Translations under genes and position numbers: made by a program
In this document: piece after piece, positions 42,303-59,765 of the stretch
Numbering within the stretch: position 1 is the stretch's first letter
Layout of the letters: each line of letters opens with the position of its first letter
Notes under the pieces: generated by a model
Told to the model about the DNA's origin: nothing
Databases searched by the model: none
The model's input: the letters and a program-made list of their open reading frames with translations, nothing else
Source: an uncultured Ignavibacteriales bacterium
GTDB lineage: Bacteria > Zixibacteria > MSB-5A5 > GN15 > FEB-12
Direction of reading: 5' to 3'
Length of the DNA: 64,000 nucleotides
Assembly: GCA_964571235.1 (NCBI GenBank)
Contig: CAZNAI010000003.1
Span: forward strand, 592,700 to 656,699

Positions 42303-43096
42303 CCAAACCTACCTGCGAAGACACGACCCTTGTCGCCGTTCGCGATCTGCATCACGGTTACTATTCTTTTACCATCGCGCCGTATGCACGAGCCGCGGAG
42401 TGCCATCCAGGGAGCTTTGTCCATGTCCAACTGACCGCCACTGATGTCTATCTCCGGCGAGCGATGTCGGTCGCGTCGGTTAATCCGCGCAAACATGAGC
42501 TTGAGATTATCTTCAAAGTATTCGGGCGGGGCACATCGGTCTTGTCACAATTCAAACCCGGCGCCAAGCTGAATATTCTCGGACCGTTGGGAATCGGTTT
42601 TAGCGCGGCGCGATCGAATTTTCATCCTGTGTTGGTAGCCGGTGGGGTGGGGTTTCCACCGCTCATGTACCTTGCCCAAGAAATGATCCACGACGGTTTC
42701 GATCCAAAGCACATTCACTTTTTCTACGGCGGCCGTACCTCTGACGATCTGGTCGAGCGGGCGAGAATAAAAAAACTGGGGGTGAAGTTCTATCCGGTGA
42801 CCGAGGACGGTTCCGTGGGAGACAAAGGGCTGGTTACTGCCTCGGTTGAGAAATTCATAGCCGCGCATCATGGTCAAAAGCGACTTCGATTGTATGGTTG
42901 CGGTCCGGAAAAAATGCTCAAAGCGGTTGACGACCTGGGTATGAAGTACGGTGTGGCGGGACAGATTTCGCTGGAGGCACCGATGCCGTGCGGTATAGGT
43001 ATCTGCCTGGGGTGTGTGGTCAATATGCGGGCGGGCGGACATTCGCGCGTCTGCACCGAAGGTCCGGTCTTTGAAATCGGCGAGGTGCTCCTGTGA
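42299..43096 (+). CDS. pyrK: Dihydroorotate dehydrogenase B, electron-transfer subunit
   Basis: An FNR-like fold is combined with the C-terminal 2Fe-2S motif CGIGICLGCVV...RVCTEGPVF. The gene overlaps pyrD by 4 nt. Confidence 0.85.
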   Translation: MTKPTCEDTTLVAVRDLHHGYYSFTIAPYARAAECHPGSFVHVQLTATDVYLRRAMSVASVNPRKHELEIIFKVFGRGTSVLSQFKPGAKLNILGPLGIGFSAARSNFHPVLVAGGVGFPPLMYLAQEMIHDGFDPKHIHFFYGGRTSDDLVERARIKKLGVKFYPVTEDGSVGDKGLVTASVEKFIAAHHGQKRLRLYGCGPEKMLKAVDDLGMKYGVAGQISLEAPMPCGIGICLGCVVNMRAGGHSRVCTEGPVFEIGEVLL

Positions 43097-44906: not shown

Positions 44907-44914
44907 GATTTCGT

Positions 44915-44942
44915 GAAGGGCGGGTTTGTCTTTGAACCCGCC
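44915..44942 (+). repeat. C-family hairpin after pyrF
   Basis: The sequence is gaagggcgggtttgtctttgaacccgcc. Confidence 0.8.
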
Positions 44943-44952
44943 AAATTAGCGC

Positions 44953-45516
44953 CTACAAATTATCCGCCTGGTGCGCTAACAGCGAATAGATCAGGCCGTC
45001 GTGCCAGTCGCGATCGTAGAAGTAATGCTGACGTAGCACTCCGTCGCGCTTAAATCCCGCCGACTCAAGCAAACGAATTGCGCCCGCGTTAAACGAGGCC
45101 GTTTGCGCATACACTTTGTTCAGTCCTCTAAAGTGAAACAGGTAGCGGCACAAAATCCGCACTGATTCAAGCGCAAATTTCTTCCCTCGCTCATCGGGAT
45201 CGATCAGGATACCGAACTCGGCAGACCGGTTCAGCGAGTTGTAATCAAAGTAAACAATCCGCCCGATCGGCACGTTGTCGGCGACTTTCACAATCATGAA
45301 CCGTTCGCGATCAGTTGATTTGTCCGCCTTTTTGAATGCTTCCACAGCCTCGGCGGCCGAGTGGACTGCATGCGGGCGGCACGATTGCGACATCGGCTCG
45401 GACATCAAAAACCAATGATGGGTATTGGCGATATCGTCGGCGGTCACCGGCCTCAGATAGATGCGTTGGCCGACCAGCGAGGGCGGCGTGGTGAGAATCG
45501 GTTTTTTGTCGGCCAT
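44953..45516 (-). CDS. GNAT family N-acetyltransferase (RimJ/RimL-like)
   Basis: IYLRPVTADD is followed by the acetyl-CoA region RGKKFALESVRILCRYLF and then NAGAIRLLESAGFKRDG. Confidence 0.85.
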   Translation of the reverse strand: MADKKPILTTPPSLVGQRIYLRPVTADDIANTHHWFLMSEPMSQSCRPHAVHSAAEAVEAFKKADKSTDRERFMIVKVADNVPIGRIVYFDYNSLNRSAEFGILIDPDERGKKFALESVRILCRYLFHFRGLNKVYAQTASFNAGAIRLLESAGFKRDGVLRQHYFYDRDWHDGLIYSLLAHQADNL

Positions 45517-46067
45517 CAGGAATACCTCTGGCGAATTTGGGTCAGATTGTCGCGATACATTTTGAGCGCTTCCTTAATAGTGTGCACGGCGTCGATTCGC
45601 CCCCGAAAATGATCGACCACCACTTCTTTGTGCTCAAGCGCCTTATAGTCCTCGAAAAACCGTCGCAATTCATGCAGGCGGTGCTTCGGTAAAGCAGAAA
45701 TGTCCTCGTAGGTGTTGTAGGCGGGGTCGCCCAAATGCACCGCGATGATCTTGTCGTCCTGTCCCTTTTCGTCGCGCATCGACATCATGCCGATCGGCCG
45801 GCACTGCACGATGCACATGGGCGTGATCGCCTCTTGGCAAAGAACCAGGATATCAAGTGGATCCTGATCGTCGCAGAAAGTCTTCGGAATAAATCCGTAG
45901 TTGGCCGGATAGTGAACCGCGCTATACAACACACGGTCAGCCATCAGTATTCCGGTTTTCTTGTCCAGTTCGTATTTGTTTTTGCTTCCCTCGGATATCT
46001 CGATAATTGCATTGACTGCGTCATCTATCCATTCACCGGGGTTTACATCGTGCCAGGGGTGGGCCAT
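45516..46067 (-). CDS. ppa: Inorganic pyrophosphatase (family I)
   Basis: The sequence [16 protein letters not shown]...[24 protein letters not shown] matches family I. Confidence 0.92.
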
Positions 46068-46173
46068 ATCGTCTCCGTTTTAAGTCGGGGTAGTATAGGG
46101 GGAACTCAGGTCGAGGGCAACTGAGAAAGATGGCTGGCGCGTTGATAGCCGACCGCCCCGCGGTCGAACTTCG

Positions 46174-46239
46174 CCTTGGTAACCCGACCTTTAGGTTGGG
46201 TTCTTCAAAATGGCCGGTTCAAAGCCGAACGCGCCCTAC
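46174..46239. repeat. Composite D (46174-46208) + C-rc (46212-46239)
   Basis: The same two-element composite recurs at 47432-47497. Confidence 0.85.
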
Positions 46240-46281
46240 AAGAACTTGTGGCAATCGCCCCGCGCATGTATCTTCCCGCCC

Positions 46282-46758
46282 ATGGACCCCTCTCTCTATC
46301 CTGATTTCATGGCTGTCGCTCTGCGCGAGGCCCAGATCGCCTTTGAAAAAAACGAGGTCCCGGTCGGCGCGGTGGTGGTCCATGACAACCGGGTGATCGG
46401 GCGGGGGCATAATCTCACCGAGTCGCTCCACGACGCCACCGCTCACGCCGAGATGATCGCGCTGTCGGCGGCCTTTAATTCGCTTGGCGACTGGCGGCTG
46501 GAGGATTGCTTTTTGTTCTCGACGCTGGAGCCATGCATTATGTGCGCCTCGGCGTCGGTGCTGTCGCGGGTGAACACAATAGTTTATGGCGCACGTGATC
46601 CGAAATTCGGCGGATGCGGGTCGATTCTGACTATCCCGACTATTGAGAAACTGAATCACCGGTGCGAGATTGTCGGCGGCGTCTGCGAGCATGAAGTCGC
46701 CGAACTGATGAAGACATTCTTTCAGCAGGTGCGGAAGAATAAGAGCAGGGTGAACTAG
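46282..46758 (+). CDS. tadA: tRNA-specific adenosine deaminase
   Basis: HAEMIAL and the EPCIMCASA zinc motifs are present. ATG 46282 was chosen because the track start 46210 lies in the repeat composite. Confidence 0.9.
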   Translation: MDPSLYPDFMAVALREAQIAFEKNEVPVGAVVVHDNRVIGRGHNLTESLHDATAHAEMIALSAAFNSLGDWRLEDCFLFSTLEPCIMCASASVLSRVNTIVYGARDPKFGGCGSILTIPTIEKLNHRCEIVGGVCEHEVAELMKTFFQQVRKNKSRVN

Positions 46759-46772
46759 AGAAGGCAGGTAGC

Positions 46773-47294
46773 ATGATTCCCGAGGGACGTAGTAACACTG
46801 ATTTCGACCTTTCTTCCATCGTCATCAAGCCGCTCTATTTCGGCCTGTTTATCAATATCCTGATTCCGACTGTGCTACTCCTTGTCTGCTACTACATCGA
46901 AACTCACGGCTCACTTCATAATCAGCTCGGGCTTGAGGCCGGCACCTATTTCTATATCTTTGCCGGCGCGGCGGTAGTCGAGGCCGGCGTGGCGCTCTGG
47001 TATCGTTTCAAACTTTTATCGCGGCCAATGGTTCGCGCGATTGGTTCTGCCGAGGCTGATATCAAAGAACAACTTTCCGCCCGTCTAAAACCGGTCTTTA
47101 TGATGGTCGCCGCGATCAGTTTCTGGGGAGTGCTCTTTTATGCTCTGACCGGGCGCTTTGAGAGCAGTCTGCTCTTTGTAGTATTCTCATTTATCGTCTT
47201 TCAGTTCATCCGCCCTCGCTACGGCTCTGTACAGAAGCTGATCGACAAACAGTTGGCCATGGCCGAGCGCGGGGAACTGTTAAGGCAGGCCTAA
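46773..47294 (+). CDS. Membrane protein, unknown function
   Basis: The call rests on four hydrophobic helices. No motif was recognised. Confidence 0.45.
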   Translation: MIPEGRSNTDFDLSSIVIKPLYFGLFINILIPTVLLLVCYYIETHGSLHNQLGLEAGTYFYIFAGAAVVEAGVALWYRFKLLSRPMVRAIGSAEADIKEQLSARLKPVFMMVAAISFWGVLFYALTGRFESSLLFVVFSFIVFQFIRPRYGSVQKLIDKQLAMAERGELLRQA

Positions 47295-47310
47295 TACAAT
47301 CTTCTTCTTC

Positions 47311-47537
47311 GTAGGGCAGGAGCCCTGCGCTCCTGCCACCTTATAGTTCTTTTCTTCGTAGGGCAGGCTCGTCTTCGAGCCTGCACTGCTTGGCAGTCCG
47401 CTGAGTTTTCAAAAACTTTGCTTCTTCTGGCCCTTGGTAACCCAACTCTTAGGTTGGGCTCTTCAAGATCGCGGGTTCAAAAACGAACCCGCTCTACACG
47501 GACATTCGACTTCACCCTGAGCTTGTCGAAGGGTCCC
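47311..47537. repeat. Repeat mosaic before tRNA-Ser: M (47311-47337, 47358-47386), D (47432-47466), C-rc (47471-47497), F-rc (47508-47537)
   Basis: The M copies are gtagggcaggagccctgcgctcctgcc and gtagggcaggctcgtcttcgagcctgcac. The other elements are identical or near-identical to copies elsewhere in the window. Confidence 0.85.
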
Positions 47538-47626
47538 AACCCGGCCGCTATCTTTTCCTTTACACCCGCCCGAAAATCCGTACATTTGGCCCTTCCGGGG
47601 CAATCCCGGATAAGACGCTTGAGATC

Positions 47627-47715
47627 GGAGAGGTGGCTGAGTGGTCGAAAGCGGCGGTCTCGAAAACCGTTATACCCTTTGGGTATCTAGGGTTCGAATC
47701 CCTACCTCTCCGCCA
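47627..47715 (+). tRNA. tRNA-Ser (anticodon CGA), CCA encoded
   Basis: The sequence is GGAGAGGTGGCTGAGTGGTCGAAAGCGGCGGTCTCGAAAACCG, a long variable arm, then GGTTCGAATCCCTACCTCTCCGCCA. Confidence 0.9.
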
Positions 47716-47733
47716 TGAGCCATGCTGGCTCAA

Positions 47734-47781
47734 CCTTGGGCCTTCGGCGCCAGACTGTGTCTGGACTTTGGGCCTTCGGCG
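47734..47781 (+). repeat. tRNA-trailing hairpin element (third copy) flanked by direct repeat cttgggccttcggcg
   Basis: The sequence is ccttgggccttcggcg-ccagactgtgtctgg-actttgggccttcggcg; compare 16131-16253. Confidence 0.8.
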
Positions 47782-47881
47782 TTTCGCATCAATAACTGTT
47801 TTGAGTATACTCTTCGATCATACCCCTCTTTCAATATTGGATTGAACCTTCTAACTTTGGGCGACATAGCGACCGACCAAA

Positions 47882-49906
47882 ATGCCGAAACCAAAGACAA
47901 CCGCCCACACTCTCTACTTCGCCTACTACATCACGATCTCGTTACTTATCCTTGGCTCCTTTCTCGACGGATCTCGGACATGGGGGATCAACACCTTCGC
48001 CTATTTGCCGCTTCCGCTCACATTGTCGGTCCTGGTTCTCCTCACCATAGCGCCCGCACTGATTGCCAAGCTGAAGTGGCTGGAAGTTGACCAAGGCAAG
48101 GAATCAGGAGAAACACAACCGAGGGCGGTGTACGTCGTAGCCGGAGCTATTCTGGCAATGCTCATCTCCGGGTGTGTCTTTTATCTCCTCAGGGCGAAAA
48201 CCCATTTCTTGGGCGACGGCTATTCACTGCTTGCCAATCTCGGGAAATGGATACCGTACCAAAAGTCAACCGAACTCGGCACGGATATCGCAGTCCAGTG
48301 GGTGGCGCGTTGGGTTGATGTCACAAGTTACGAACTTGCCGCGCGAACTTATCAATTCATCGCGATAGGATCTGGGATGATCTTAGTTGCGGCGACGGTC
48401 TTCTTCGGGCGCATCTTTTTCAACAGGCGACAAGACAAGCTGTTGTTTGCGCTGTTGGCAGTTTCGGGGGGACAGATGCTCTTGTTCTTCGGGTATGTCG
48501 AAAACTATGCGCTCCTATCACTCTTTTCGGCATTGTTAGTATTGGTCGGTATCGGAGTCGCGCGCGGCAAATTCCGACGCTTGACAATCTTGCTTCCGCT
48601 CGCACTGGCACTGTTTTTCCACCTCCTGGCGCTGGTTCTTGTTCCCGCCACGGTCTACTTGTTGATGCGAAACTCGAAATTTGGACTGTGGTTCGGGAAG
48701 CGTTCATTGACGGCGAAATGGGGCCTGGTGGCTGGAACTGCCGTAGTTGCCATGGTCGCCTTGTTGCTGTCAGGAGACCAAGCGCTCTTTTTCCAACTCA
48801 CGGTCGTGCCGCTTGCCGCAGGCAAATTCACTGTGCGAGGATACACACTCCTTTCCCCAAGCCACATCCTGGACTTTGCCAATCTGATCTTCCTGCTTTG
48901 CCCCGGCATTTTGGTTTGTCTCGTGGCAATCAAACGCCGCACGCTCAAGTCACTCTTCGCCCAGCCAGAGTACGCGTTTCTCGGTATCGTGACACTTTCT
49001 ACGCTGTGCGCCTCATTCCTGCTCGATCCGAAACTCGGCATGGCTCGCGACTGGGACTTGCTTTCACTTGCGGGATTTCCACTGTCGGTTCTCACGGCAT
49101 TCGTGCTTCTTGATCGCAACGACCGGATTGGAAACAGCGGTATTGTCCTCGCCAGTTTGCTGGGTCTGGCTGTGTTGTTCAGTCGAGCCGCCGTACAGTT
49201 CCTGCCTGTTAGCGGGGCAGAATACGCCGAGGATGTCATGAAGCTCGACCTTGCGCGTAGCCGGAATGCCTTCACCAGTCTGATTGATTACCACGGCTCC
49301 GTGGGCAATCGATCGAAATCAGCCGAGATCAAGAACTACTGGCAAGGCGTGTATCCCGAAGTCGGCGCGCTTCGCCAGGTGACATCCATGTTTGCCAGCG
49401 GGCAGTTGCCGCAGGGTAAACAAATGCTGGATGCGGTTATTGCTCGTTCGCCCGAATATGCCGAAGCCTGGGCCGGTCTTTGTATTTATTACTACCGCAC
49501 ACGTCAATACGATAGTGCGCTTTTCGCTGGAGGGATCGCCAGCGGCCTCAATCCGAACAACCCGACAGTGTTGTTCAATATGGGTCTTGCGCAGTACTCG
49601 CTTGGCAACTCCGGCGACGCCGAGCGACTTTGGTTGAAATCACTAAAGATCGACTCGAGCTTTGCGGCTCTGTCGCTGGCCCACCTATATCGTGACAGGG
49701 GCGACTCAACGCAATACGCGACTTTCCTTTTCTCTGCGGCCTCGCGATCCACCGCTCGCCCCGATGAACTGAAAGAGGCAATTCAACTTGCGATAAATCG
49801 CCGTCAATTCGACCTCGGCTCTCGGTTTGTACAGAAATACCAAGTGATTGGGGCCGACAGCGTTTGGCTAGACAGTTTGCTCTCCCAATTTCCGAATCTG
49901 AAGTAG
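47882..49906 (+). CDS. Polytopic membrane protein with C-terminal TPR domain (glycosyltransferase-39/O-antigen-polymerase-like architecture)
   Basis: About 12 hydrophobic segments are followed by TPR-like repeats (AEAWAGLCIYYYRTRQYDSALFAGGIASGLNPNN ...). It is a paralog of the partial gene at 1..398. Confidence 0.7.
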   Translation: MPKPKTTAHTLYFAYYITISLLILGSFLDGSRTWGINTFAYLPLPLTLSVLVLLTIAPALIAKLKWLEVDQGKESGETQPRAVYVVAGAILAMLISGCVFYLLRAKTHFLGDGYSLLANLGKWIPYQKSTELGTDIAVQWVARWVDVTSYELAARTYQFIAIGSGMILVAATVFFGRIFFNRRQDKLLFALLAVSGGQMLLFFGYVENYALLSLFSALLVLVGIGVARGKFRRLTILLPLALALFFHLLALVLVPATVYLLMRNSKFGLWFGKRSLTAKWGLVAGTAVVAMVALLLSGDQALFFQLTVVPLAAGKFTVRGYTLLSPSHILDFANLIFLLCPGILVCLVAIKRRTLKSLFAQPEYAFLGIVTLSTLCASFLLDPKLGMARDWDLLSLAGFPLSVLTAFVLLDRNDRIGNSGIVLASLLGLAVLFSRAAVQFLPVSGAEYAEDVMKLDLARSRNAFTSLIDYHGSVGNRSKSAEIKNYWQGVYPEVGALRQVTSMFASGQLPQGKQMLDAVIARSPEYAEAWAGLCIYYYRTRQYDSALFAGGIASGLNPNNPTVLFNMGLAQYSLGNSGDAERLWLKSLKIDSSFAALSLAHLYRDRGDSTQYATFLFSAASRSTARPDELKEAIQLAINRRQFDLGSRFVQKYQVIGADSVWLDSLLSQFPNLK

Positions 49907-50049
49907 GCTAAAGTTGACGAAGCACAAAACCTCCACTTGTGATTGACAGTTCCACACTCAATTAATATTGTCACCAACAGAGTTTCTATGTGTTAGCAAG
50001 TACAACCGGGGACCTTTACGCCAAATAGAACATTTGACCAGGTGATCCT

Positions 50050-50745
50050 ATGACCAAACAACAAGACATTGCCGAAGGAATCTTGCACGAAGTACCGGCC
50101 GATTTGCGAAGAGTCCTGTCGTCCGATTCGGACCTTCTCGCCAGGTGGAACAATCTCACCCCGATTCAACGCAACGAGTGGATATGCTGGATTACTATCG
50201 TCAAGAAACAGGAAACCAGAGTTGACCACATCGACCGAATGATCGTTGAAATCAATGAAGGCAAGCGCCAGCCCTGTTGTTGGCCGGGGTGCCCTCACCG
50301 CCGACCGAAAGCGGCGAAGTACTTCGGGAAACAAAGAGAAAGTGCATCTTCGCTCAACTCGGAGATTGAATCATACAATAGCAAGCTTGCCGGAGCTGAC
50401 AAAGAAATCTGCGTGAAATTGGCCCAGACTGTTAGTCAGCATCTGCCTAAAGCCGAAAGCAAAGTCTGGCACCGGCATCCGGTTTGGTTTTCAGGCGGCA
50501 ATCCAATCGTTGGCTACAGCAAGCAGAAGCGCGGTATACGCCTGATGTTCTGGAGCGGCGCCAGCTTTGATGAAGAGAAATTGGAGCCCGGCACCGGGAA
50601 GTTCAAAGATGCATCGATATTCTACGACGATTCGGCCGATGTGAACATCACAGAATTGAAACGTTGGCTTAAGAAGGCCGAGAAGATCCAATGGGATTAC
50701 AAGAATATCGTTAAACGAAAAGGCAAGTTGGTGCGACTGAAGTGA
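50050..50745 (+). CDS. YdeI/OmpD-associated-like domain fused to DUF1801 (YdhG-like) domain
   Basis: The N-terminal part is LTPIQRNEWICWITIVKKQETRVDHIDRMIVEINEGKRQPCCWPGCPHR. The C-terminal part (KVWHRHPVWF...GIRLMFWSG) is DUF1801-like. Confidence 0.65.
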   Translation: MTKQQDIAEGILHEVPADLRRVLSSDSDLLARWNNLTPIQRNEWICWITIVKKQETRVDHIDRMIVEINEGKRQPCCWPGCPHRRPKAAKYFGKQRESASSLNSEIESYNSKLAGADKEICVKLAQTVSQHLPKAESKVWHRHPVWFSGGNPIVGYSKQKRGIRLMFWSGASFDEEKLEPGTGKFKDASIFYDDSADVNITELKRWLKKAEKIQWDYKNIVKRKGKLVRLK

Positions 50746-51204
50746 GATTGGCCAGTACATGACTGAACTCATGTTGTCTGTAAACCCGACCATAAATAGT
50801 GGGCGGCAGAGCCCACGAACGATAATTGCTAACATCCACCCCCTAATTTGACTGGTTCTGACGCGTCCATCGAGGCCCGCAACTCACAATACTGCAACGG
50901 GTTGTTAGGCTTTCCTTCGGTGGTAGACGCCCGGACACAAATAGTCTCCGAGGAAACCACTGAAGTGACTTGACTTTTTGGATTAATGCGCTTTATTTTA
51001 TGTACCATCGAGTCCACGAGTGTCTGTCTTGAATTCTGTAAATACAGACACGGTGGTTATTATTGGATGTTAGTCTGCCGATAAATAGAGATAACGGGCG
51101 TGACGGTTGCAATTTGCTGTTGCGTGTCACTTTGTTGTTTGAGATATTAGACGACCAATGTAGGCAGTTGGCGTATTTGGGAGTATGGGGAGGAGAATTG
51201 GTTT

Positions 51205-51807
51205 ATGAAACATCACCATAGAACACTATTGGGTGATTTCCAAATCAGAACTGACCACATGGCGTTAGTGATTTTCTTATGTTTCTTGTTGTTACCGTTA
51301 CACTCGAGGGCCGAGGAACATGTAAAGTCACTGCCAAAGGCGCAGTACGATCTGTACTTCTTCTATCAAGATTTTGTTGAAGCCTACAACTCTTTAGGTC
51401 ATCGGGACGCTGACTCAACGGCCTTCCGACGAATGCTTGATCGATGGAGGCCCGTGCTCGGATCGATACATAGCGCCGACAGTGCCGGAGACAAGTGCGA
51501 GTTAGATATTGCTATTAGAATAGATACCATCGCCGAACCGCATGCCAGGTATGTATTGGATTCTTTGGTTGGAACCAACCAATTAGCTATGAGCGATCTG
51601 TGCTACAATGGTTCAACAGTAACGGCATCGGCATGTGTCCTCAGGTTGCCCGAACTTGCCCGCCTTGATTTTGTTACATCGATTCGAAGCTATTCTGGTG
51701 GAGTAGCTTCCGGGAGAGTATCGGCGCGTGAACGCTCGTCCAAAGTGTCGGATTCTACTCTCAGTTCGATCCCTTTCGAGGCACTTGATTCAAAAAAAAA
51801 GCCTTAG
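51205..51807 (+). CDS. Signal peptide + putative pro-region of the downstream S8 subtilase (upstream frame of a frameshifted gene)
   Basis: GGGGAGGAG lies 9 nt upstream of the ATG. The signal is MALVIFLCFLLLPLHSRA. The ORF ends TCA AAA AAA AAG CCT TAG inside an A9 run. Confidence 0.6.
   Translation: MKHHHRTLLGDFQIRTDHMALVIFLCFLLLPLHSRAEEHVKSLPKAQYDLYFFYQDFVEAYNSLGHRDADSTAFRRMLDRWRPVLGSIHSADSAGDKCELDIAIRIDTIAEPHARYVLDSLVGTNQLAMSDLCYNGSTVTASACVLRLPELARLDFVTSIRSYSGGVASGRVSARERSSKVSDSTLSSIPFEALDSKKKP
51792..51801 (+). other. A9 run containing an in-phase A AAA AAG slippery heptamer (candidate -1 frameshift / slippage site, or homopolymer error)
   Basis: The heptamer at 51795-51801 is in X XXY YYZ phase with ORF 51205. 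The -1 frame is open from 51789 into the S8 domain. Confidence 0.6.
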
Positions 51808-51899
51808 ACGAGATTCCTCAGCACAATATATATAGGTCAACTTTCGATAAGCGGGCGCTTAGTCCAAAGTCGCCAAGTGGACATGGCGTCATTGTCGCT

Positions 51900-53564
51900 G
51901 TGATTGACACGGACATTGATCCCACGCACCCGGAGTTTCTGGGTGACGACGATTGTACTCGGGTTGTGGTATTCAAAGATTTTGCGAGCGGCTCTCCTCG
52001 CGCATGGTCTTCTGCGGACATTGACTCTATCCGTACAGGGAACGGCAAGAATACTCTCCGAGCGCGGGCACTGTTGGGTGATCAGCATCAGCACGGAACG
52101 AGAGTCGCCTCGGTAATTGCTGGTAGACACTATGGTGTTGCGCCTGGTGCACAACTCATTCTTTTACAGATTCCTACCGAGAGCAACGTCAAGCCGATGA
52201 ACGAAGCCCTCAGGTTTCTGCAGGATACTGTGGCACAACTGGACAAGCCGTACATTATCAACATTTCTCTTGCATCAGATGATGGACCAAGGGATGGTAC
52301 CACAGATGATATTGAACGGATACTGGGAGAAATGCTCACCGGAATCACCGAAAGTCAACTGAAGGCAATCGTGGTGTCGGCAGGAAATGACCACTACGAT
52401 AGGTCATTCACGGACTCCGCTCGCAACTATCCCAGCGTATTTAGCAAGGCAAGGCTGGCAGAACTTGAAAACACGAGATCACATGTTCGGGGCGTCGGAA
52501 CCAAGACGTTGCAACTTGAACTCCATACGGATCCAATTTACCACGACATGGTGAACATCAGTATTTGGTACCCGGCGGGAGATCTGTACGATGTAAAAGT
52601 GACCACACCCAGAGGATTTTCATACGGTCCTGTCTTGGCGGGACATTATCTCAAGGACAGTTCTGGGGAGCGATGTTCCTATGCGGATGGCGGGGTGGGT
52701 ATTACGAATTATCAGTCACCAACGACACCGGGTAACATCAAAATTACACTTAGGGACTACCACAGCAATCGTCATCTTTTGTCCAGTAGCGATGGGCCTT
52801 GGAAGGTTGAGTTGATTCGGAGATCGGCTGTTGGCAATGGTAGCTGGGACGCCTACATATGGGGTCAGAGCCCAACGGGTTTAGTGAAAGCGTTCGACAC
52901 TGATTCTCTGGGAACAGAACACAATCTCTATAAGATAAATCCCTGGGCTAACAATGAACAAGTGTTGACTGTCGGCTCAATAAACGACGGGACGGACGTA
53001 TTTAGGGCAGAGGAGTTCAAAATCCATAAGAAATTCTACTCCAATTTGCAACAGCCGAATGAGCCCTCCCATTTCTCGAGCCTCGGTCCCTCTCGGGCTG
53101 GGACTAAGAAACCCGATATTTATGCGTGCGGGTTGCTTGTGCAGGTCCCGACGTTTGCGACTCTGGATAAGGTGAGCGACGATATCGAATATGCACGTAG
53201 CCCCGATCTTGAGTCAGGTACGAGTTTCTCATCGGCGGTGGTTTCGGGATTGTTGGCTTTGGTTTTGGAGTATGATTCGCTCAATATTCTTAAACCACGA
53301 GATATCCGAGAGATGATAGTAGATAGTTCAATCCATCAAGATCTCATCGGCATTGACAGCAAGAGTGGTACTGTAATCCGTGATCCGAAGGTAGTTAGTA
53401 GCCAGTTTTCAGGACTACACAAAGACACGATCCGGTACATTTCTCCTTCCGATACCCGCAAGTTTTTACAGAAAGCCCAGTTGTTCATTCAAGGCAAGCT
53501 TCCAAAGAAAGACACAGCATCGCGGACTATCGAAGGTAAGAACGCCAATGACATGAAACGGTGA
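51900..53564 (+). CDS. Subtilisin-like serine protease (peptidase S8) catalytic and C-terminal region; the frame is open from 51789 with no start codon before GTG 51900
   Basis: The catalytic residues are Asp in (GVIVAV)IDTDID, His in HGTRVASVIAG, the oxyanion Asn in SAGNDH and Ser in SGTSFSSAVVSG. Confidence 0.85.
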   Translation: MIDTDIDPTHPEFLGDDDCTRVVVFKDFASGSPRAWSSADIDSIRTGNGKNTLRARALLGDQHQHGTRVASVIAGRHYGVAPGAQLILLQIPTESNVKPMNEALRFLQDTVAQLDKPYIINISLASDDGPRDGTTDDIERILGEMLTGITESQLKAIVVSAGNDHYDRSFTDSARNYPSVFSKARLAELENTRSHVRGVGTKTLQLELHTDPIYHDMVNISIWYPAGDLYDVKVTTPRGFSYGPVLAGHYLKDSSGERCSYADGGVGITNYQSPTTPGNIKITLRDYHSNRHLLSSSDGPWKVELIRRSAVGNGSWDAYIWGQSPTGLVKAFDTDSLGTEHNLYKINPWANNEQVLTVGSINDGTDVFRAEEFKIHKKFYSNLQQPNEPSHFSSLGPSRAGTKKPDIYACGLLVQVPTFATLDKVSDDIEYARSPDLESGTSFSSAVVSGLLALVLEYDSLNILKPRDIREMIVDSSIHQDLIGIDSKSGTVIRDPKVVSSQFSGLHKDTIRYISPSDTRKFLQKAQLFIQGKLPKKDTASRTIEGKNANDMKR

Positions 53565-53654
53565 CATTCCTATTTTGCATGTGCGAAGTGGAGTTTTCGA
53601 TTATGTCGGCATATAGAAGGATACGAGCACATGAGGGTGCCGGAACTCAATTGA

Positions 53655-54044
53655 TCACACCGGTGCGTTGGCCGCCGGCAAAGCGCGTACGATATATTCG
53701 GCCTGTATCAAATTGATCATCAGTTCCTGCTCGGCGCTCACCTGCGGAAACTCGTACCCGGCGCTGAACATCCCGCGCGACGGTGTCTTGGTTTTCCAGC
53801 GGCAAATGGCTTTCAACTCAAGATGTCGCGCCCCCATCACCCGGTACGGCAGGACGATTTTTATGGTCATCGATTTGTTGATGTGAAACGGCCCCTCGCC
53901 GCTGAGCATCATGCCACCGGTGGAAAGGTCGACCAGAAACCCAAGTGTCACCCTCGTTTCCGGATCTTTCACCGCCAACGATTCGGGAGTGGTCACCCGC
54001 CGTGCTTTTCGTTTCTCTGCCATATCTTTGATCGGTCCAGTCAA
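53655..54044 (-). CDS. PilZ domain protein (c-di-GMP receptor candidate)
   Basis: RKARR (RxxxR) is followed by DLSTGGMML (D/NxSxxG). Confidence 0.75.
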   Translation of the reverse strand: MTGPIKDMAEKRKARRVTTPESLAVKDPETRVTLGFLVDLSTGGMMLSGEGPFHINKSMTIKIVLPYRVMGARHLELKAICRWKTKTPSRGMFSAGYEFPQVSAEQELMINLIQAEYIVRALPAANAPV

Positions 54045-54109
54045 AATTGTAGCCTATGATAATAGAAATCGGCAGAATACGGCCCGGACTTTAAGGCAAG
54101 TATCGGGTA

Positions 54110-54757
54110 CTATCGCCTTAAGAATACATGAGTTGCGCGATCAGTTGAAACGCGCCTGATGGACCTAAATCCGAGCGTATGAAGATTGATACCGTCGAGT
54201 AGTCGCTCTCCCTCTCCCATTACCACATCGGAACAAGCCAGATGCATCTCATCAATCAGACCGGCCCTGAGATACTGCCGTACAGTCGCCACCCCTCCGC
54301 CGATGCGTATATCTTTCTCGCCGGCGGCTTGACGGGCCTGCATGAGTGCCGATTCGATCCCATCAGTGACGAAATTGAATGTTGTGCCGCCTTCCTGTTC
54401 AATCGACGGACGCGGAAAATGAGTGAGCACATAAACCGGACAATGATACGGCGGATTTGCCCCCCACCATCCCTTCCAGGAATCGTCCGGCCATTCGCCG
54501 CGAATCGGGCCGAACATGTTTCGCCCGAGTATCCAGGCCCCGACATTCGCCATGGCATTTTTGGCGATCTCATTATCCGTGTCCTCAGACCCGCCTTCCT
54601 GGCCGGTCATTTGATGGAAGAACCTGGTATGGAAAACCCACCCAAACATCTCGCCGCCACGAACTCCGAGGGGGTTGTTGAGGTCCTGATTTGGCCCGGC
54701 TCCGAAGCCGTCAAGCGACACCGAAAATGCCGATACTCGAACGATTCCCACTTTCAC
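54110..54757 (-). CDS. Dihydrofolate reductase-like (RibD C-terminal domain) protein
   Basis: The N-terminus is SLDGFGAGPNQ. Later segments are ILGRNMF and the C-terminal GGGVATVRQYLRAGLIDEMHL. Confidence 0.75.
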   Translation of the reverse strand: MKVGIVRVSAFSVSLDGFGAGPNQDLNNPLGVRGGEMFGWVFHTRFFHQMTGQEGGSEDTDNEIAKNAMANVGAWILGRNMFGPIRGEWPDDSWKGWWGANPPYHCPVYVLTHFPRPSIEQEGGTTFNFVTDGIESALMQARQAAGEKDIRIGGGVATVRQYLRAGLIDEMHLACSDVVMGEGERLLDGINLHTLGFRSIRRVSTDRATHVFLRR

Positions 54758-55699
54758 CTACCCTTTTGCACTTATCGGCGACGAGTCTTTTCGACCCACG
54801 ATAGTAAGTGCAATGCCGCCGATCACAATAATTGTGGCAACTAATAGTCGTGCAGTTAGAACTTCATTTAGAAACAGGACACCGCCTAAGGCGGTGAGCG
54901 CGGGTACGGCCAGTTGTGTCACCGATGCCTCGGTAGCGGTAATCCGCTGAAGTGTCATATACCAAAGGACATACCCCAGTCCCGAAGCCAGTGCGCCGGA
55001 TACTACGGCCAACAGGATGCCATAGGCGTTGGCGTGGAAATGTCCGCTCCAGAACATTTTCCAGGCGATAATCACAATGAGCACCGCCACACCGGGCAGA
55101 CCGAATATGAAACTGCGGGCGGTCGCAACAACCGGATCAGGCCTGTTCGTCGCCAGTAGCGAATAGACTCCCCACGACACTCCCGCTATCGTCATTAGCA
55201 GTGCACCCAAAAGTGAAGGTGCAGACAGGTTAGACGAGAGCAGATAGTACAGCCCGCCCAGCGCCGCCAATCCACCCAGCCACTGGAACGGGGAGACAGT
55301 GTCTTTTCGGAAAACTGCCCCGACAATCATACAGAGGTGCACCGAGGCGAACAAAATCAGTGCGCCGGTTGAGGCTGTCAGATCAATGTATGCCAGCGAA
55401 AAACAGAGCGCATATACAAAGAGCGCCAGTACCGGCCAGAGGTATGATTTTTCAAACGACACCTGACCTGATTTATCCAACGACGGCGCCAATTCTGTCC
55501 CCGATTGACGGAGCAGCACCACCATCAACCACAGCACAGCGGCGCCGGAAACAAGTCGAATGGATGTAAACTCAAGTGCGCCGATGGAACCGGTTTTCAG
55601 CGCGAGTCGGCACAAGATGGAATTTGCGGCGAATGCACAAAGTGTAGCGACGGTAAGAATCGATGTGAATGTAATACTCGGACGGTTTCCGGTTGCCAT
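54758..55699 (-). CDS. EamA/DMT-family transporter
   Basis: There are ten hydrophobic helices in a duplicated 5+5 pattern. Start is ATG 55699; the track start is 55780. Confidence 0.75.
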   Translation of the reverse strand: MATGNRPSITFTSILTVATLCAFAANSILCRLALKTGSIGALEFTSIRLVSGAAVLWLMVVLLRQSGTELAPSLDKSGQVSFEKSYLWPVLALFVYALCFSLAYIDLTASTGALILFASVHLCMIVGAVFRKDTVSPFQWLGGLAALGGLYYLLSSNLSAPSLLGALLMTIAGVSWGVYSLLATNRPDPVVATARSFIFGLPGVAVLIVIIAWKMFWSGHFHANAYGILLAVVSGALASGLGYVLWYMTLQRITATEASVTQLAVPALTALGGVLFLNEVLTARLLVATIIVIGGIALTIVGRKDSSPISAKG

Positions 55700-55828: not shown

Positions 55829-56245
55829 CTACAAGAATTTTAGCACCGTCGCGCCGATCTGATCGCGGATGCGCCGAAATTCGGCGAGGATTTCTTCCTC
55901 GTCGCCGCTCGCCGAGGCAGGATCATCAAACGGCCAGTGAAGGCGCTTACCTTCGCCGGGGAAAACCGGGCAATTGGCGGCGGCATTGTCGCACACGGTG
56001 ATCAGGTAGTCAAACTTCTGCGACCGGTATTCATCTATGTTGTTTGAAGTCTGCGTTGAAATGTCAATCCCGACTTCTGCCATCACTTTGATCGCCGTCG
56101 GATGAACTCCCTTGGGTGAAAGTCCCGCAGAGAGAACGTCGATCCGAGCTCCGCCAAGGTGACGGAAGAATCCTTCAGCCATTTGCGAACGGCACGAATT
56201 TCCGGTACAAAGGACCAGGATGCGAAGTTTGCTCATGCTAATCAC
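55829..56245 (-). CDS. arsC: Arsenate reductase, LMW-PTPase type
   Basis: CTGNSCRSQMAEG (CX5R P-loop) is present, together with downstream Cys residues. Confidence 0.9.
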   Translation of the reverse strand: MISMSKLRILVLCTGNSCRSQMAEGFFRHLGGARIDVLSAGLSPKGVHPTAIKVMAEVGIDISTQTSNNIDEYRSQKFDYLITVCDNAAANCPVFPGEGKRLHWPFDDPASASGDEEEILAEFRRIRDQIGATVLKFL

Positions 56246-56567
56246 ACTTCTTTCGTGTTAAGTAGGACTGAAGGAGCGCCCTGTCTGAAGAGTATGGCTC
56301 GATGGCATGTAGTTGTTTTGCGATAGGGCCAGCAATCTCCACGACAAACTGGTCGTCGCTCAGTTTGTAGTGAATCCACTTGCCCGCCCGTCGGTCGCTC
56401 ACGATTCCGGCCGATTTGAGCTTGGCCATGTGCCGTGAAATTGTCGGTTGCGGAAGTTTCAACACTTCGGTCAGGTCACAGACACAGAGTTCGCCCCTTA
56501 ATAGTAGCACGGCAATGCGTAGGCGAGTAGAATCAGCCAAGGCCTTGAGCTGGTCGTGCGGTTTCAT
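56238..56567 (-). CDS. arsR: ArsR/SmtB-family metalloregulator
   Basis: The ELCVCDL metal site lies in a winged HTH. The gene overlaps both neighbours. Confidence 0.9.
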
Positions 56568-57622
56568 GTTGCCACCGTGCGGTTAGGTACAGCGAAGTAC
56601 TTTTTCTGAAAGAAAAGCGCCACGTTGACCAACGCCACCAACACGGGAACTTCGACCAACGGACCAATCACCGCGGCAAATGCGGCACCGGAGTTGATCC
56701 CGAAGACGGCCACCGCTACCGCAATCGCCAGTTCAAAGTTGTTGCTGGAGGCGGTGAATGACAAGGTGGCGGTTTTCGAGTAGTCAGCACCGACTTTGTG
56801 ACCCAGCCAGAACGAAACCAGAAACATGACAACGAAGTAGATGAGTAGCGGCAGGGCGATTCTGAGAACATCGAGCGGGATCTGTACGATCAAATCCCCC
56901 TTTAAGCTGAACATGATGACAATTGTAAACAACAGCGCGATGAGAGTGACCGGAGAGATCTTCGGAATGAACTTCTTTTCGTACCAGTCCCGCCCTTTGG
57001 TCTTAAGCGCCACCAGGCGAGTTAGCATACCGGCAATAAACGGGATACCAAGATAGACAAAAACCGATTTGGCGATTTGTCCCATGCTGATATCCACCGC
57101 CGATCCTTTCAGTCCGAAGATGGGCGGTAGAATGGTAATGAATATCCAGGCATAGACACTGTAGAAGAGAACCTGAAAGATCGAGTTGAATGCCACCAAC
57201 CCGGCGGCATATTCCGTGTCACCCCTGGCAAGTTCGTTCCAGACGATCACCATTGCGATACACCGCGCCAGTCCAATCATAATCAGCCCGACCATATACT
57301 CCGGATATCCCGACAGAAAGGTAATCGCGAGCACAAACATGAGAATCGGGCCAATCACCCAGTTTTGTAAGAGTGACAACCCAAGTATTTTGGTGTTGCG
57401 GAAGACATCGCCAAGCTCTTCGTATTTCACTTTGGCAAGCGGGGGGTACATCATGAGGATGAGGCCGACCGCGATCGGAACATTGGTCGTGCCCACCTGA
57501 AACGTATTGAGAAACGGCACAATCTGCGGCACGAGGTATCCGAGCGCCACGCCGGCCGCCATTCCAAGGAAAATCCAGAGAGTCAGGTAGCGATCGAGAA
57601 ACGAAAGACCCGATTTGTTCAC
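56564..57622 (-). CDS. acr3: Arsenite efflux permease, ACR3 family
   Basis: The N-terminus is [23 protein letters not shown] and there are 10 TM helices. The start is GTG with GAGGTG upstream. Confidence 0.9.
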
Positions 57623-57910: not shown

Positions 57911-58549
57911 ATGCGTAAAGCAACTATCTTGATTTTGACAGCGTTGGCGTTTGGCGCCTTCGCTCTGTCACCGGTATTCGCCTGTGACAAAGACAAAGCG
58001 TCGGCGTCAACCGGCGAAGTAAAAGCCCAGATGGTGGGTGACAAGGCCTCGTGCGGCGCGAAAGCCGAAGGCGCCTCAGCCCAATTGACCGGCGACAAAG
58101 CGGCCTGCGCCGCGGCGTGCAAGAGCATGTCTCCGGCCGAGTGTGCCGCCATGTGCGGCTCGATGTCCGCTGAAGCGCTGGGCAAGCATCTCGGATACGA
58201 CGGCAAGGTTCAGCTCGTGAATATGTCGGTCAAAGGGATGACCTGCGGCGGTTGCGAAACCTCCTTGCGGGCCTCGCTTGAGAAGATGGACGGCGTCGTG
58301 AAAGTCTGTGCCATTTCCTATAAGGACAATGTTGCGCTGGTAGCTATCGATCCGGCCAAGGTGAAGAGCGAAGCTCTTACCACATTGGTGACCAACAAAG
58401 GGTACACCGCCGAGATTATTCCGGCCGTAGCCACAACTGGCACCCAGACGACCGATGCTCACAAGGGTTGCACCGCTGAGCAGAAGGCCGCTTGCGAAGC
58501 CAAGAAGGCCGCCGAGACCAAGGAAGCCTCGGACAAACAGCCCCACTAA
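57911..58549 (+). CDS. Secreted Cys-containing protein with heavy-metal-associated (HMA) domain
   Basis: GGAAGGAG lies upstream of ATG 57911. The signal peptide is MRKATILILTALAFGAFALSPVFA. The HMA motif is GMTCGGCE. Extra Cys pairs occur in ACAAACKSMSPAECAAMCGSM. Confidence 0.75.
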   Translation: MRKATILILTALAFGAFALSPVFACDKDKASASTGEVKAQMVGDKASCGAKAEGASAQLTGDKAACAAACKSMSPAECAAMCGSMSAEALGKHLGYDGKVQLVNMSVKGMTCGGCETSLRASLEKMDGVVKVCAISYKDNVALVAIDPAKVKSEALTTLVTNKGYTAEIIPAVATTGTQTTDAHKGCTAEQKAACEAKKAAETKEASDKQPH

Positions 58550-58570
58550 TACGGAATCAGCTTTTGTTAG

Positions 58571-58601
58571 CGGGACACAGCAATGTGTCCCGTTTTTTTT
58601 T
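58571..58601 (+). terminator. Rho-independent terminator after the HMA gene
   Basis: The hairpin is cgggacaca gcaa tgtgtcccg, followed by a T9 run. Confidence 0.85.
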
Positions 58602-58750
58602 GCCCCAAATCGGTCGTTTTGCACGCACCAAACGTTCTCTATATTAGAGATGATGTCGCCAATGTTGCCAGCCTGCCATTCGAAAGCACACATTAGTGGA
58701 ACGTTATTGCGAGCGCCAATCCGGCCCGATAACACAACACTCGAAAAAAC

Positions 58751-58786
58751 GTCATTGCGAGCGACGCCTCGTCGCGAAGCAATCTC
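58751..58786 (+). repeat. H-family clamp repeat with small hairpin insert
   Basis: The sequence is gtcattgcgag-cgacgcctcgtcgc-gaagcaatctc. Confidence 0.8.
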
Positions 58787-58805
58787 GCCTCGTATTCGTT
58801 CGATT

Positions 58806-59765
58806 ATGGGAGTCCTCTCGCTTCCATTTTTCTTTATCCTGGCAATAGCGATCCCCGCCCACGCCGCCAAATACGCCGGCGATCCGTTTTCACTGGGTGT
58901 CGGAGGACGCTCGCTCGGTCTCGGTGGCGCGACAGTCGCAGGGCCGTTTGATGCCTCCGCGCCGTATTGGAATCCAGCCGGCATGCTCTCACTCGATGGA
59001 CAGTATGTCCTGGCGATGCACGCCGAGACATTCGGCTCGCTCCTCAATCACGACTTTGTTTCCTACGTCGATGCCAATCCGCACGACAGCTCGCTGGTCC
59101 GCGCCTGGGGAGTCTATCTGTATTATCTGGGCGGAGGCGGTATCAAGATCACGCAACTCGATCAGTACAACCGACCGTATGTGGTCAAAGAGGAATCGCA
59201 CGGCGACTATCTTCTTGCGGGGTCAGTGGCAGGTCGATTGAGCGAAAAAGCAGATTTCGGCCTCTCTGGAAAGATCATCTATCGTGATATTGGAACCGAA
59301 ACTGGCATCGGGTTGACAATCGACGCCGGCGGTATCTACCGAATACACCCCAAAGCAACTCTCGGGTTGATGGTCAATGATATCACCACCGGGTTCATTC
59401 GATATTCGGGCAAGACCTTTGGCGCCGGCGGTAATACCGAGTCAATCTATCCCACCGTGCGGCCGTCGATCATGATTCATCACCAGTACCACGATTTTAC
59501 CGGACGCCTGTTGTTTACCGGCGATGCAAAGTTTGAATCACTAAAGCAATCGGCGCAATTGTGGGTCGGGTCGTTGTCGATGGACACTCACTACGGATTT
59601 GAAATCAACTGGCGCGAAATGGCCTTTGGCCGGGTCGGCTTTGACATCGGCCGGCTGACTCTCGGCGCCGGCGCGGCAGTTCGAAATTTCACTCTCGATC
59701 TGGCCTACTTGCACGACGCTGATTTCGACGCCACTTTTCGTGTTAGCGGCGGATATCGCTGGTAA
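58806..59765 (+). CDS. Outer-membrane beta-barrel protein, PorV/PorQ-like
   Basis: A signal peptide is followed by AGDPFSLGVGGRSLGLGGATVAGPFDASAPYWNPAGM, which resembles the PorV/PorQ N-terminal signature. The protein ends in an aromatic residue (GGYRW). Confidence 0.55.
   Translation: MGVLSLPFFFILAIAIPAHAAKYAGDPFSLGVGGRSLGLGGATVAGPFDASAPYWNPAGMLSLDGQYVLAMHAETFGSLLNHDFVSYVDANPHDSSLVRAWGVYLYYLGGGGIKITQLDQYNRPYVVKEESHGDYLLAGSVAGRLSEKADFGLSGKIIYRDIGTETGIGLTIDAGGIYRIHPKATLGLMVNDITTGFIRYSGKTFGAGGNTESIYPTVRPSIMIHHQYHDFTGRLLFTGDAKFESLKQSAQLWVGSLSMDTHYGFEINWREMAFGRVGFDIGRLTLGAGAAVRNFTLDLAYLHDADFDATFRVSGGYRW

Follow-up and report, generated by a model that had tools for sequence, protein, structure and literature searches.

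A pre-pro-subtilase gene split at a nine-adenine tract in a Zixibacteria genome: recent frameshift or recoding signal?

When a bacterial gene changes reading frame inside a run of adenines, is the change a designed recoding signal or the mark of a broken gene? The question is raised by a locus in a 64-kb window of the genome of an uncultured Zixibacteria bacterium (the whole 64,000-nt stretch of DNA analysed; all positions are on its + strand), where a signal peptide and a prodomain-like module were found in one open reading frame (ORF1), in a frame other than that of the S8 protease domain (ORF2). An earlier note, made from the letters alone, had described one pre-pro-subtilase split at an A run and had emphasized -1 ribosomal frameshifting of the E. 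coli dnaX kind. The explanation we favor, with moderate confidence, is a recent, slightly leaky frameshift in a dispensable, probably acquired gene rather than a designed frameshifting signal.

ORF1 (51205..51807) encodes a 200-aa pre-pro fragment in the 0 frame, ending ...EALDSKKKP, and the identical ORF is present on five independent Logan assemblies. A Shine-Dalgarno (SD)-like GGAGGAG (51189..51195) lies 9 nt 5' of its ATG (51205), and its last codons read TCA AAA AAA AAG CCT TAG. The frame breaks at the A9 homopolymer (51792..51800), with two heptamers in phase in the A9 region, A AAA AAA (51792-51798) and A AAA AAG (51795-51801), and the 0-frame TAG stop (51805..51807) one codon past the heptamer. 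The -1 frame is closed on its upstream side by a TGA (51786..51788), is open from 51789, and overlaps the ORF1 frame by 19 nt containing the A9; with the TGA on one side and TAG 51805 on the other, any switch of frame is thus confined to 51789-51804. Its first ATG, GTG or TTG is the GTG at 51900, and the stretch lacking a start codon (51801..51899) codes for the last part of the linker, together with the mature N-terminus (EIPQHNIY...) and the greater part of strand beta1 (GHGVIVAV), and has homology to single-chain subtilases. The limits of ORF1 and of the tract, the codon phase and the opening of the -1 frame were as the earlier note had placed them.

Based on computed tract-length variants, the frame is restored by a -1 shift or by A10 (786 aa, matching the roughly 786 aa predicted earlier for a -1 slip) and by A7 (785 aa), while A8, A9, A11 and A12 tracts give products of only 200-210 aa, both unproductive frames soon meeting a stop. 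Whether the frame is restored in an A10 mRNA or by a -1 shift of the ribosome, the junction peptide, KKKALDEIPQHNIYR, is identical. Although the heptamer is indeed in canonical phase, as had been pointed out, this is not meaningful: every reading frame through any A9 has an in-phase A AAA AAN heptamer, so the phase match is no extra coincidence, and we rejected it as evidence for a programmed frameshift.

The occurrence of such a tract is not beyond chance, with two A9 or T9 runs observed in the window against 1.02 expected and at least two in 25 of 100 shuffles. The A9 tract is, however, the only homopolymer of at least 8 nt in coding DNA of the window, and it coincides with the only frame break, a coincidence that is non-random; eight other homopolymers of 7 nt sit within intact ORFs, at a coding density of 88%. 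No second KKK in the window is encoded by AAA alone. In this genome a perfect tract of nine or ten A's is out of the ordinary, and it could be a hint that slipperiness or mutability is selected for.

ORF1 begins with a predicted Sec signal peptide (residues 1-36; 51205..51312), in which a basic n-region is followed by the hydrophobic core MALVIFLCFLLLPL and a putative cleavage site between SRA and EE. Hydropathy reaches its maximum of 2.92 at residues 19-31, and single-chain homologues have signal peptides at the corresponding place. Farther along lies a prodomain-like module (residues 99-162; 51499..51690), which has a beta-alpha-beta-beta-alpha-beta topology in AF2 models and, as an isolated domain, a pLDDT of about 92. 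ORF1 was weakly matched by a profile built from the pro-regions of homologues (11.3 bits; best of 2000 shuffles, 6.0). A Pfam search of ORF1 at E <= 10 gave no match, Inhibitor_I9 included, and Foldseek returned generic ferredoxin-like folds, subtilase propeptides among them, none at E <= 0.001, an outcome that fits a prodomain but is not specific. On the profile match and the modelled prodomain-type topology, we read ORF1 as the pro-region of a former single gene.

ORF2, as annotated by gene callers, comprises 554 aa from a GTG (51900..53564) and holds an S8 domain with a central beta-sandwich insertion. That this domain is intact in the -1 frame, as the earlier reading had it, was borne out by a match to Pfam Peptidase_S8 PF00082 (115.3 bits, cut-off 21.8, E = 4.2e-33) and by the position of the catalytic residues in conserved columns of the homologue alignment. 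D235 (51906-51908), H297 (52092-52094) and S674 (53223-53225) occupy invariant columns, and the oxyanion-hole Asn, N395 (52386-52388), a nearly invariant one; the catalytic order Asp-His-Ser is kept, with the unusual motif variants DTD instead of DTG, and GTSFSS. The nearest PDB folds by Foldseek were CspB, CspA and CspC (E = 1e-25 to 1e-22, TM(target) 0.53-0.64), obtained with a model of only medium quality (mean pLDDT 57.5). The annotated start fits this domain poorly. GTG 51900 has no SD, BLASTP alignments to homologues begin at residues 218-226, two glycines encoded 5' of it (G226 and G228) fall in invariant or nearly invariant columns, and AF2 places a strand at residues 230-235. Because a product from this GTG would have neither SD nor signal peptide and would lose the mature N-terminus and strand beta1, ORF2 cannot stand alone, and the absence of an earlier start, already remarked on before, was confirmed.

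Homologues of 690-845 aa carry the signal peptide, pro-region and S8 domain in one chain. Since these single-chain homologues align across the junction (residue 199/200), ORF1 and ORF2 evidently once formed one continuous pre-pro-subtilase gene, and relative to such intact homologues the gene is disrupted, as a pseudogene would be. The split itself is real rather than artefactual. Over 2-7.7 kb, Logan assemblies of five separate runs (SRR13076500, 506, 512, 514 and 517) match the window at 100% identity and each has the nine-A tract, giving A9 in 6/6 assemblies with the window included, the tract length being read from consensus assemblies; no fused or A10 variant protein was found in a 15-billion-protein collection. 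Further disabling mutations, which the earlier note had considered for this copy, were not found: the 786 codons contain no stop or frameshift besides the A9 break, and the catalytic residues are intact. With the remainder of the gene intact, the broken state must be either very recent or maintained; if this is a pseudogene, it is a young one.

Searches beyond the window recovered no orthologue of the gene. Against 5.8 billion clusters, the fused protein matched only itself (the 554-aa ORF2) and S8 proteins at <=28% identity, and ORF1 alone matched only itself, as it did in a full phmmer search of 1.84 billion representatives. Nothing was found when the fusion was scanned against GTDB species representatives or when the junction with A7-A12 was sought in JGI metagenome DNA. 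The earlier note had looked to orthologous loci for conservation of the split and the heptamer; the comparison was run and gave no orthologue above 28% identity, and a relative without the gene.

This closest relative, GCA_044227335.1, was reached through a search with the TPR neighbor, which provided both taxonomy and synteny. (The pyrophosphatase neighbor was uninformative on both, its best match being at 63% identity, with matches spread across many phyla and no linked subtilase.) In blastn against the window, the relative's flanks align at 84-90% nucleotide identity up to 50769 and resume at 53640, its gene order passes from OmdA directly to PilZ, and 103 bp stand in place of a 2.87-kb segment (50770..53639) that holds the entire subtilase locus. 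No terminal direct or inverted repeats were found at the boundaries of this segment. It lies within a low-GC patch (44-51% vs about 54%), and the subtilase gene has a GC of 47-49% and a GC3 of 48-51%, vs 54% and 62%. Judged by alignment with the relative, the segment proves to be accessory DNA; absence from the syntenic relative together with the low GC indicates an accessory gene that was probably horizontally acquired. The lack of an orthologue, the absence from the closest relative and the low GC thus favor a dispensable, recently damaged gene.

The flanks of the tract carry few signs of a recoding signal. The RNA downstream folds no better than shuffled sequences (51802-51860 at -6.4 kcal/mol, z = +0.88; 51802-51900, z = -0.13), and an upstream nascent-RNA hairpin was not significant (51740-51801, z = -1.44, matched by 18/200 shuffles). 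The sole upstream SD-like element is a weak internal GAGG (51778..51781), a 4-mer indistinguishable from chance, 13 nt ahead of the second heptamer. The earlier remark that the locus had no convincing hairpin and only a weak GAGG therefore held, and the emphasis on dnaX-like -1 frameshifting did not: with no downstream structure, a heptamer phase that is automatic and no orthologue in which to see conservation, we found nothing in support of a programmed -1 ribosomal frameshift. Bare heptamers in E. coli shift at 2-10 times a background of about 0.055%, well under 1% (PMC4066793). The shiftiness of A AAA AAG depends on a single tRNA-Lys, and tRNA-Lys(CUU) damps it (PMC5009743). Here, AAG makes up 44% of Lys codons, a share typical where tRNA-Lys(CUU) is encoded as well, and this codon use suggests its presence; the tRNA genes within the window are tRNA-Gln and tRNA-Ser only.

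Slippage by RNA polymerase is a different matter. Frameshift mutations that leave a 9A run are still partly expressed via transcriptional slippage, and the A9 of Thermus thermophilus dnaX yields about 50% slipped transcripts (PMC1088944); for the A11 of Citrobacter rodentium tssM1 the figure is 20-25% (PMC4256274). By analogy with these cases, should the frame be restored at all, RNA-polymerase slippage on A9 would be a more plausible route than -1 ribosomal frameshifting. Slippage efficiency on A9 is organism-dependent.

The history we propose begins with a continuous Csp-like S8 pre-pro-subtilase gene, accessory and probably horizontally acquired, in a Zixibacteria genome. A one-base frameshift, most parsimoniously from A10 to A9, would then have arisen in a poly(A) tract that is predicted to sit in a disordered linker joining the prodomain to the catalytic domain, A9 being a run on which RNA polymerase is prone to slip and a hotspot for indels during DNA replication. 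Standard decoding would now give only the 200-aa secreted pre-pro fragment, and the full-length 786-aa enzyme would be made only through slippage: mainly by RNA polymerase adding one A (an A10 mRNA) or removing two, and to a minor extent by -1 slippage of the ribosome on either A AAA AAA or A AAA AAG. On this view, the locus is a young leaky pseudogene, a 'pseudo-pseudogene' sensu Baranov et al. 2005 (PMC1088944), and we infer no selection on its state.

Selected recoding, in which A9 would be kept so that slippage of RNA polymerase, alone or combined with -1 frameshifting on A AAA AAG, sets a fixed low ratio of zymogen to free prodomain, is conceivable but unlikely. Chromosomal programmed cases are rare relative to homopolymer frameshift mutations, which counts against it, as do the missing downstream structure, the automatic phase of the heptamer, the lack of an orthologue in which conservation could be shown and the accessory nature of a gene missing in the closest relative. 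On the other side, a single added A suffices to restore the frame, stops stand nearby in both unproductive frames, the remainder of the gene is intact with its catalytic triad conserved, the GAGG lies 13 nt upstream, and the short product would, in the models, be a complete signal peptide and prodomain unit, plausibly an inhibitor or chaperone. A9 is also the classic length for productive transcriptional slippage (PMC1088944). The AAG share, which suggests a tRNA-Lys that damps shifting on A AAA AAG (PMC5009743), speaks against selected recoding. In one form of this idea, which we consider improbable, A9 would be a selected slippage (or mixed slippage and -1 frameshifting) signal that yields mostly free secreted prodomain, in the role of an I9-like inhibitor or of a chaperone, and a smaller share of full-length zymogen. 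We know of no subtilase in which a protease is co-expressed with an excess of its own inhibitor by such an arrangement. A phase-variable contingency locus, at which replication slippage toggles A9 (OFF) and A10 or A7 (ON) and the assemblies represent OFF, is likewise unlikely. Contingency genes typically have a homopolymer within the 5' third and a product that is secreted, as here; the subtilase gene has no other damage, and A10, the most parsimonious ancestral tract, is hypermutable too. The earlier caveats that named phase variation and a pseudogene were appropriate. However, A9 recurs in six of six assemblies, which derive from five or more sequencing runs, with no length polymorphism among these consensus sequences, contigs pass unbroken through the tract, the 15-billion-protein collection holds no A10 or fused protein, and the 64-kb window has no further coding homopolymer of at least 8 nt.

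The two remaining readings fare worse. A sequencing or assembly artefact, with a true tract of A10 and a plain continuous ORF, is very improbable, and the assembly error entertained in the earlier note is largely excluded. Homopolymers are the commonest site of indel errors, and the 887-kb source contig may mean long-read data; nonetheless, A9 is shared by the five independent per-run assemblies, which otherwise show 100% identity over stretches of up to 7.7 kb, an agreement unexpected from error-prone reads, and no other gene in the window has a homopolymer frame break. Two independently functional genes, a secreted prodomain-like ORF1 and a protease translated from GTG 51900, would agree with the gene callers' annotation and with the ability of subtilisin propeptides to act in trans in vitro. 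We find this scarcely credible, because the GTG has no SD, a start there would drop the conserved mature N-terminus and most of beta1 and leave no signal peptide, and all homologues are single-chain. Independent translation of ORF2, and a prodomain supplied in trans, were rejected on the same grounds; the two products would, moreover, lie in different compartments.

The closest known cases share some features with the locus and differ from it in others. Like the pseudo-pseudogenes of Baranov et al. 2005, the subtilase is broken exactly at an A9, one extra A in the mRNA restores the ORF, and a single, possibly strain-specific mutation would account for the state, with no auxiliary signal; unlike here, those genes were recognized through intact orthologues in sister strains, and the in-frame neighbor of our tract is A10 (or A7) rather than A8, pointing to a deletion from A10 and not to the extension of a non-slippery A8 (PMC1088944). 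With C. rodentium tssM1 (A11) and T. thermophilus dnaX (A9) the locus shares a poly(A) just 5' of a premature stop, the need for added A's and the expectation of two products (PMC4256274; PMC1088944), whereas in both of those slippage was experimentally shown and both products are needed, and ours is an accessory gene known from its sequence. E. coli dnaX and IS3/IS911-type elements likewise have A AAA AAG in phase with a 0-frame stop close by; in dnaX, however, an SD-like element precedes the heptamer by 10 nt and a strong stem-loop follows it, and the IS elements have a hairpin or pseudoknot, whereas the subtilase has only the 4-nt GAGG and no structure above shuffled controls.

Phase-variable genes of Campylobacter, Helicobacter, Neisseria and Haemophilus resemble the locus in that a homopolymer, whose length would set ON or OFF, lies in the 5' part of a gene with an exported product, and differ from it in that length is constant here in six assemblies and the window does not hold multiple such tracts. 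To our knowledge, homopolymer phase variation is unreported for Zixibacteria. In protein architecture the nearest counterparts are the clostridial Csp subtilases (CspB 4i0w; CspA/CspC 9pr8, 9pr9, 6mw4), in which an S8 domain has a large beta-sandwich inserted centrally and a prodomain at the N-terminus; identity to them is only 16-20%, and in contrast to them the present protein has a signal peptide, a Gram-negative-type FCB-group host and no link to spore germination.

If the locus reflects only recent mutation, its value is practical: it offers a clean, verified 'authentic frameshift' at a poly(A) run, from which annotation pipelines make two genes without meaning, a 'hypothetical' of 200 aa and an S8 protease truncated at its N-terminus, and such loci can be resolved from public assemblies without reads. 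If A9 were instead maintained by selection, a minority possibility that no finding raises higher, a secreted protease would join the very few non-mobile bacterial genes whose expression involves transcriptional slippage, and the locus would suggest a way to dose a zymogen against its own prodomain. All samples have A9 as the consensus state, so purging of the 'broken' allele is at least not under way.

On the plus strand of the window, the upstream 0-frame ORF (ORF1, 51205–51807, 200 aa, C-terminus ...EALDSKKKP*) ends in the codons TCA AAA AAA AAG CCT TAG, which contain a run of nine A's (A9, 51792–51800). Because the -1 frame opens only at 51789, after a TGA at 51786–51788, the two frames overlap by just 19 nt, essentially the A-run itself. 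Neither ATG, GTG nor TTG occurs in the -1 frame between 51789 and GTG 51900, from which gene callers predict a 554-aa product comprising the S8 catalytic part (ORF2, 51900–53564, plus strand); the earlier note had described these features correctly. The frames are joined into a fusion of 786 or 785 aa by a tract of A10 or A7 or by a -1 shift on the run; tracts of A8, A9, A11 or A12 give products of 200–210 aa. The same note placed the heptamer A AAA AAG in canonical phase, which is accurate but uninformative, since an in-phase A AAA AAN heptamer is present in any frame through nine A's (two in this run). A9/T9 runs are no rarer in the window than in shuffled sequence (2 versus 1.02 expected, with at least 2 in 25 of 100 shuffles). 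What is non-random is that the sole frame break of the window coincides with its sole coding homopolymer of at least 8 nt.

Four lines of evidence demonstrate that ORF1 and ORF2 were formerly one gene. The homologues, although distant (at most 28% identity), are all single chains of 690–845 aa with a signal peptide, pro-region and S8 domain in that order, and several BLASTP alignments span the junction (residues 120–723, 137–717 and 145–723 of the fusion). Nearly all S8 alignments start at residues 218–226, upstream of the GTG (residue 233), and multiple alignment revealed invariant G226, D235, H297 and S674 and nearly invariant G228 and N395; the segment EIPQHNIY...GHGVIVAV, encoded in the -1 frame ahead of any start codon, corresponds in this alignment to the homologues' mature N-terminus and first strand. 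Against a profile of the homologues' pro-regions alone, ORF1 residues 134–162 scored 11.3 bits (best of 2000 shuffles, 6.0). AlphaFold2 modelled ORF1 residues 99–162 as beta-alpha-beta-beta-alpha-beta, the subtilase-prodomain topology (pLDDT 63–80 within the fusion, about 92 as a lone domain), and placed the junction inside a disordered linker (164–221), followed by strand beta1 at 230–235. Single-chain homologues, profile and predicted topology thus bear out the earlier proposal of one pre-pro-subtilase split at the A-run. Pfam assigned ORF2 to Peptidase_S8 (E = 4e-33) and matched no family to ORF1. Foldseek searches with the isolated ORF1 domain returned Tk-subtilisin and Aspergillus propeptides among many ferredoxin-like folds, none at E <= 0.001, a result compatible with a prodomain but not specific to it.

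A strong Shine-Dalgarno (SD) sequence, GGAGGAG, precedes ORF1 by 9 nt, and ORF1 encodes a hydrophobic signal sequence. Its start varies by gene caller between ATG 51205 (200 aa) and ATG 51259 (182 aa), of which 51205 is the better, as it alone has an SD and puts a basic n-region ahead of the hydrophobic core. ORF2 as an independent gene was rejected, since GTG 51900 has no SD ahead of it and a protein begun there would have no signal peptide, no mature N-terminus and little of beta1; the earlier objection that this start removes the signal peptide and the strand before the catalytic Asp therefore holds.

The locus encodes a divergent subtilase of the S8 family, in the centre of which a beta-sandwich of about 200 residues is inserted between the Asn and Ser (about 400–620 of the fusion). 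DTD replaces the usual DTG at the catalytic Asp (235–237), and GTSFSS replaces GTSMAxP around the catalytic Ser (672–677). By Foldseek, the solved folds nearest to it are those of Csp proteases (E = 1e-25 to 1e-22), which act in clostridial spore germination, whereas the host here is a Zixibacteria-like organism. Many distant homologues carry a type IX secretion C-terminal sorting domain (PF18962), which was not detectable in this subtilase.

The window is chromosomal, encoding PriA, AcnA, Lon and SecA as well as PorV/PorQ-like and PorW-like proteins, and the great majority of homologues of a TPR protein encoded nearby belong to Zixibacteria. The closest available relative (GCA_044227335.1, contig JBGAWZ010000103.1) is collinear with the window across 41457–55059, with flanks at 84%–90% DNA identity, but has 103 bp in place of 2,870 bp (50770–53639) containing the subtilase locus and its upstream region. 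No subtilase remnant was found at the syntenic site, no terminal repeats around the 2,870-bp segment, and no orthologue in any collection searched. The gene has 47%–49% GC and 48%–51% GC3, where the window's remaining 49 ORFs have 54% and 62%. Its absence from the relative, low GC and lack of an orthologue identify it as an accessory gene, probably horizontally acquired. Recent inactivation is common among such genes.

The frame break recurs beyond a single assembly. Exact-sequence look-up recovered the same two ORFs on contigs of five independently assembled runs (SRR13076500, 506, 512, 514 and 517), which are 100% identical to the window across 2.0–7.7 kb. Judged from the assembly consensus sequences, all five have A9 and cross the tract without a contig break. 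A collection of 15 billion proteins held neither the fused (A10) protein nor any sequence variant of either ORF. Coding density in the window is 88%, and eight further 7-nt homopolymers lie inside intact ORFs, indicating no general tendency of the assembly towards homopolymer errors. The plain assembly error that had been entertained is accordingly very improbable.

We found no programmed recoding signal around A9. RNA downstream of the heptamer was no more stably folded than its shuffles (z = +0.88 and -0.13), a hairpin on the upstream side was not significant (z = -1.44), and the sole SD-like element is a 4-nt GAGG 13 nt upstream, in agreement with what the earlier note had said. The suggested likeness to dnaX frameshifting loses its footing here: the phase match is automatic, and the downstream structure, the one testable auxiliary feature of dnaX/IS3-type -1 programmed ribosomal frameshifting, is absent. 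Both sequence features of transcriptional-slippage genes, run length and an ORF restored by one A, are present. In E. coli, heptamers without stimulators shift at 2–10 times a background of about 0.055% (PMC4066793), and the high shiftiness of A AAA AAG has been linked to its single tRNA-Lys, whereas T. thermophilus has two and instead uses RNA-polymerase slippage on A9 (PMC5009743). Slipped transcripts reach about 50% at T. thermophilus dnaX A9 (PMC1088944) and 20%–25% at C. rodentium tssM1 A11 (PMC4256274), the efficiency being organism-dependent. Any full-length enzyme made here would more likely stem from RNA polymerase than from the ribosome.

On balance, we consider it somewhat probable that the locus is a leaky "pseudo pseudogene," a formerly continuous gene frameshifted at its A-run. 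On the simplest account, a hypermutable A10 tract lost one base, or else a base interrupting the run was lost; either change would have fallen in the non-conserved, disordered linker, itself an insertion relative to homologues in the multiple alignment. Normal decoding would then yield only the 200-aa pre-pro fragment, and the defect would be leaky through slippage on the nine A's left behind. Baranov et al. described the same situation under this term, with slippage on 9A (PMC1088944), and as a decoding problem the locus works like their 9A "authentic frameshift" genes; it is a further instance of an already known kind of locus. Counting against a leaky pseudogene, the 786 codons are otherwise without a flaw and an unbroken A9 or A10 is out of the ordinary for this genome, so that two further readings were kept. 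Selected slippage or frameshifting at A9 is fairly unlikely, and less likely still is its specific form, a site setting the dose of zymogen relative to a surplus of the enzyme's secreted prodomain. Phase variation by replication slippage, in which A9 would be the OFF state, is likewise unlikely; A9 in six of six assemblies argues against frequent switching.

A RibD_C-like gene (54110–54757, minus strand) occupies a 770-bp segment (54025–54794) between PilZ and EamA genes; the corresponding interval in GCA_044227335.1 is 181 bp. This is a further presence/absence difference of gene size from that relative, and together with the subtilase segment it marks a small variable region. A sister species is represented in public data (GCA_044227335.1 and SRR13723391), with about 84% amino acid identity in the TPR protein and flanks 84%–90% identical in nucleotides. 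An arsenic-resistance cluster (55829–57622, minus strand) follows directly downstream of the variable region and consists of a low-molecular-weight phosphatase/ArsC-like protein, an ArsR-type HTH protein and an ACR3 arsenite efflux protein (TIGR00832, 470 bits). Type IX secretion-like genes, for a PorW/SprE-like TPR lipoprotein and a PorV/PorQ-family protein, fall within 36993–44906 and 58455–59765. Two further homopolymers, A8 at 14242 and T9 at 58593, each adjoin a GC-rich hairpin and are terminator-like. The former (14242–14270), where A8 directly precedes the palindrome GCCGCGCGTACGCGCGGC, lies between priA (end 14003) and a minus-strand gene (14333–15079) and is probably a terminator for that gene, or bidirectional. 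At 58569–58601 (plus strand), T9 comes after a GC-rich hairpin of 11 bp, an arrangement resembling a strong intrinsic terminator; upstream, the closest genes lie on the minus strand, and downstream is the PorV/PorQ-like gene, whose profile match begins near residue 130 in the naive ORF at 58455. The element may serve as a leader or attenuator, or may mark where a small unannotated transcript ends.
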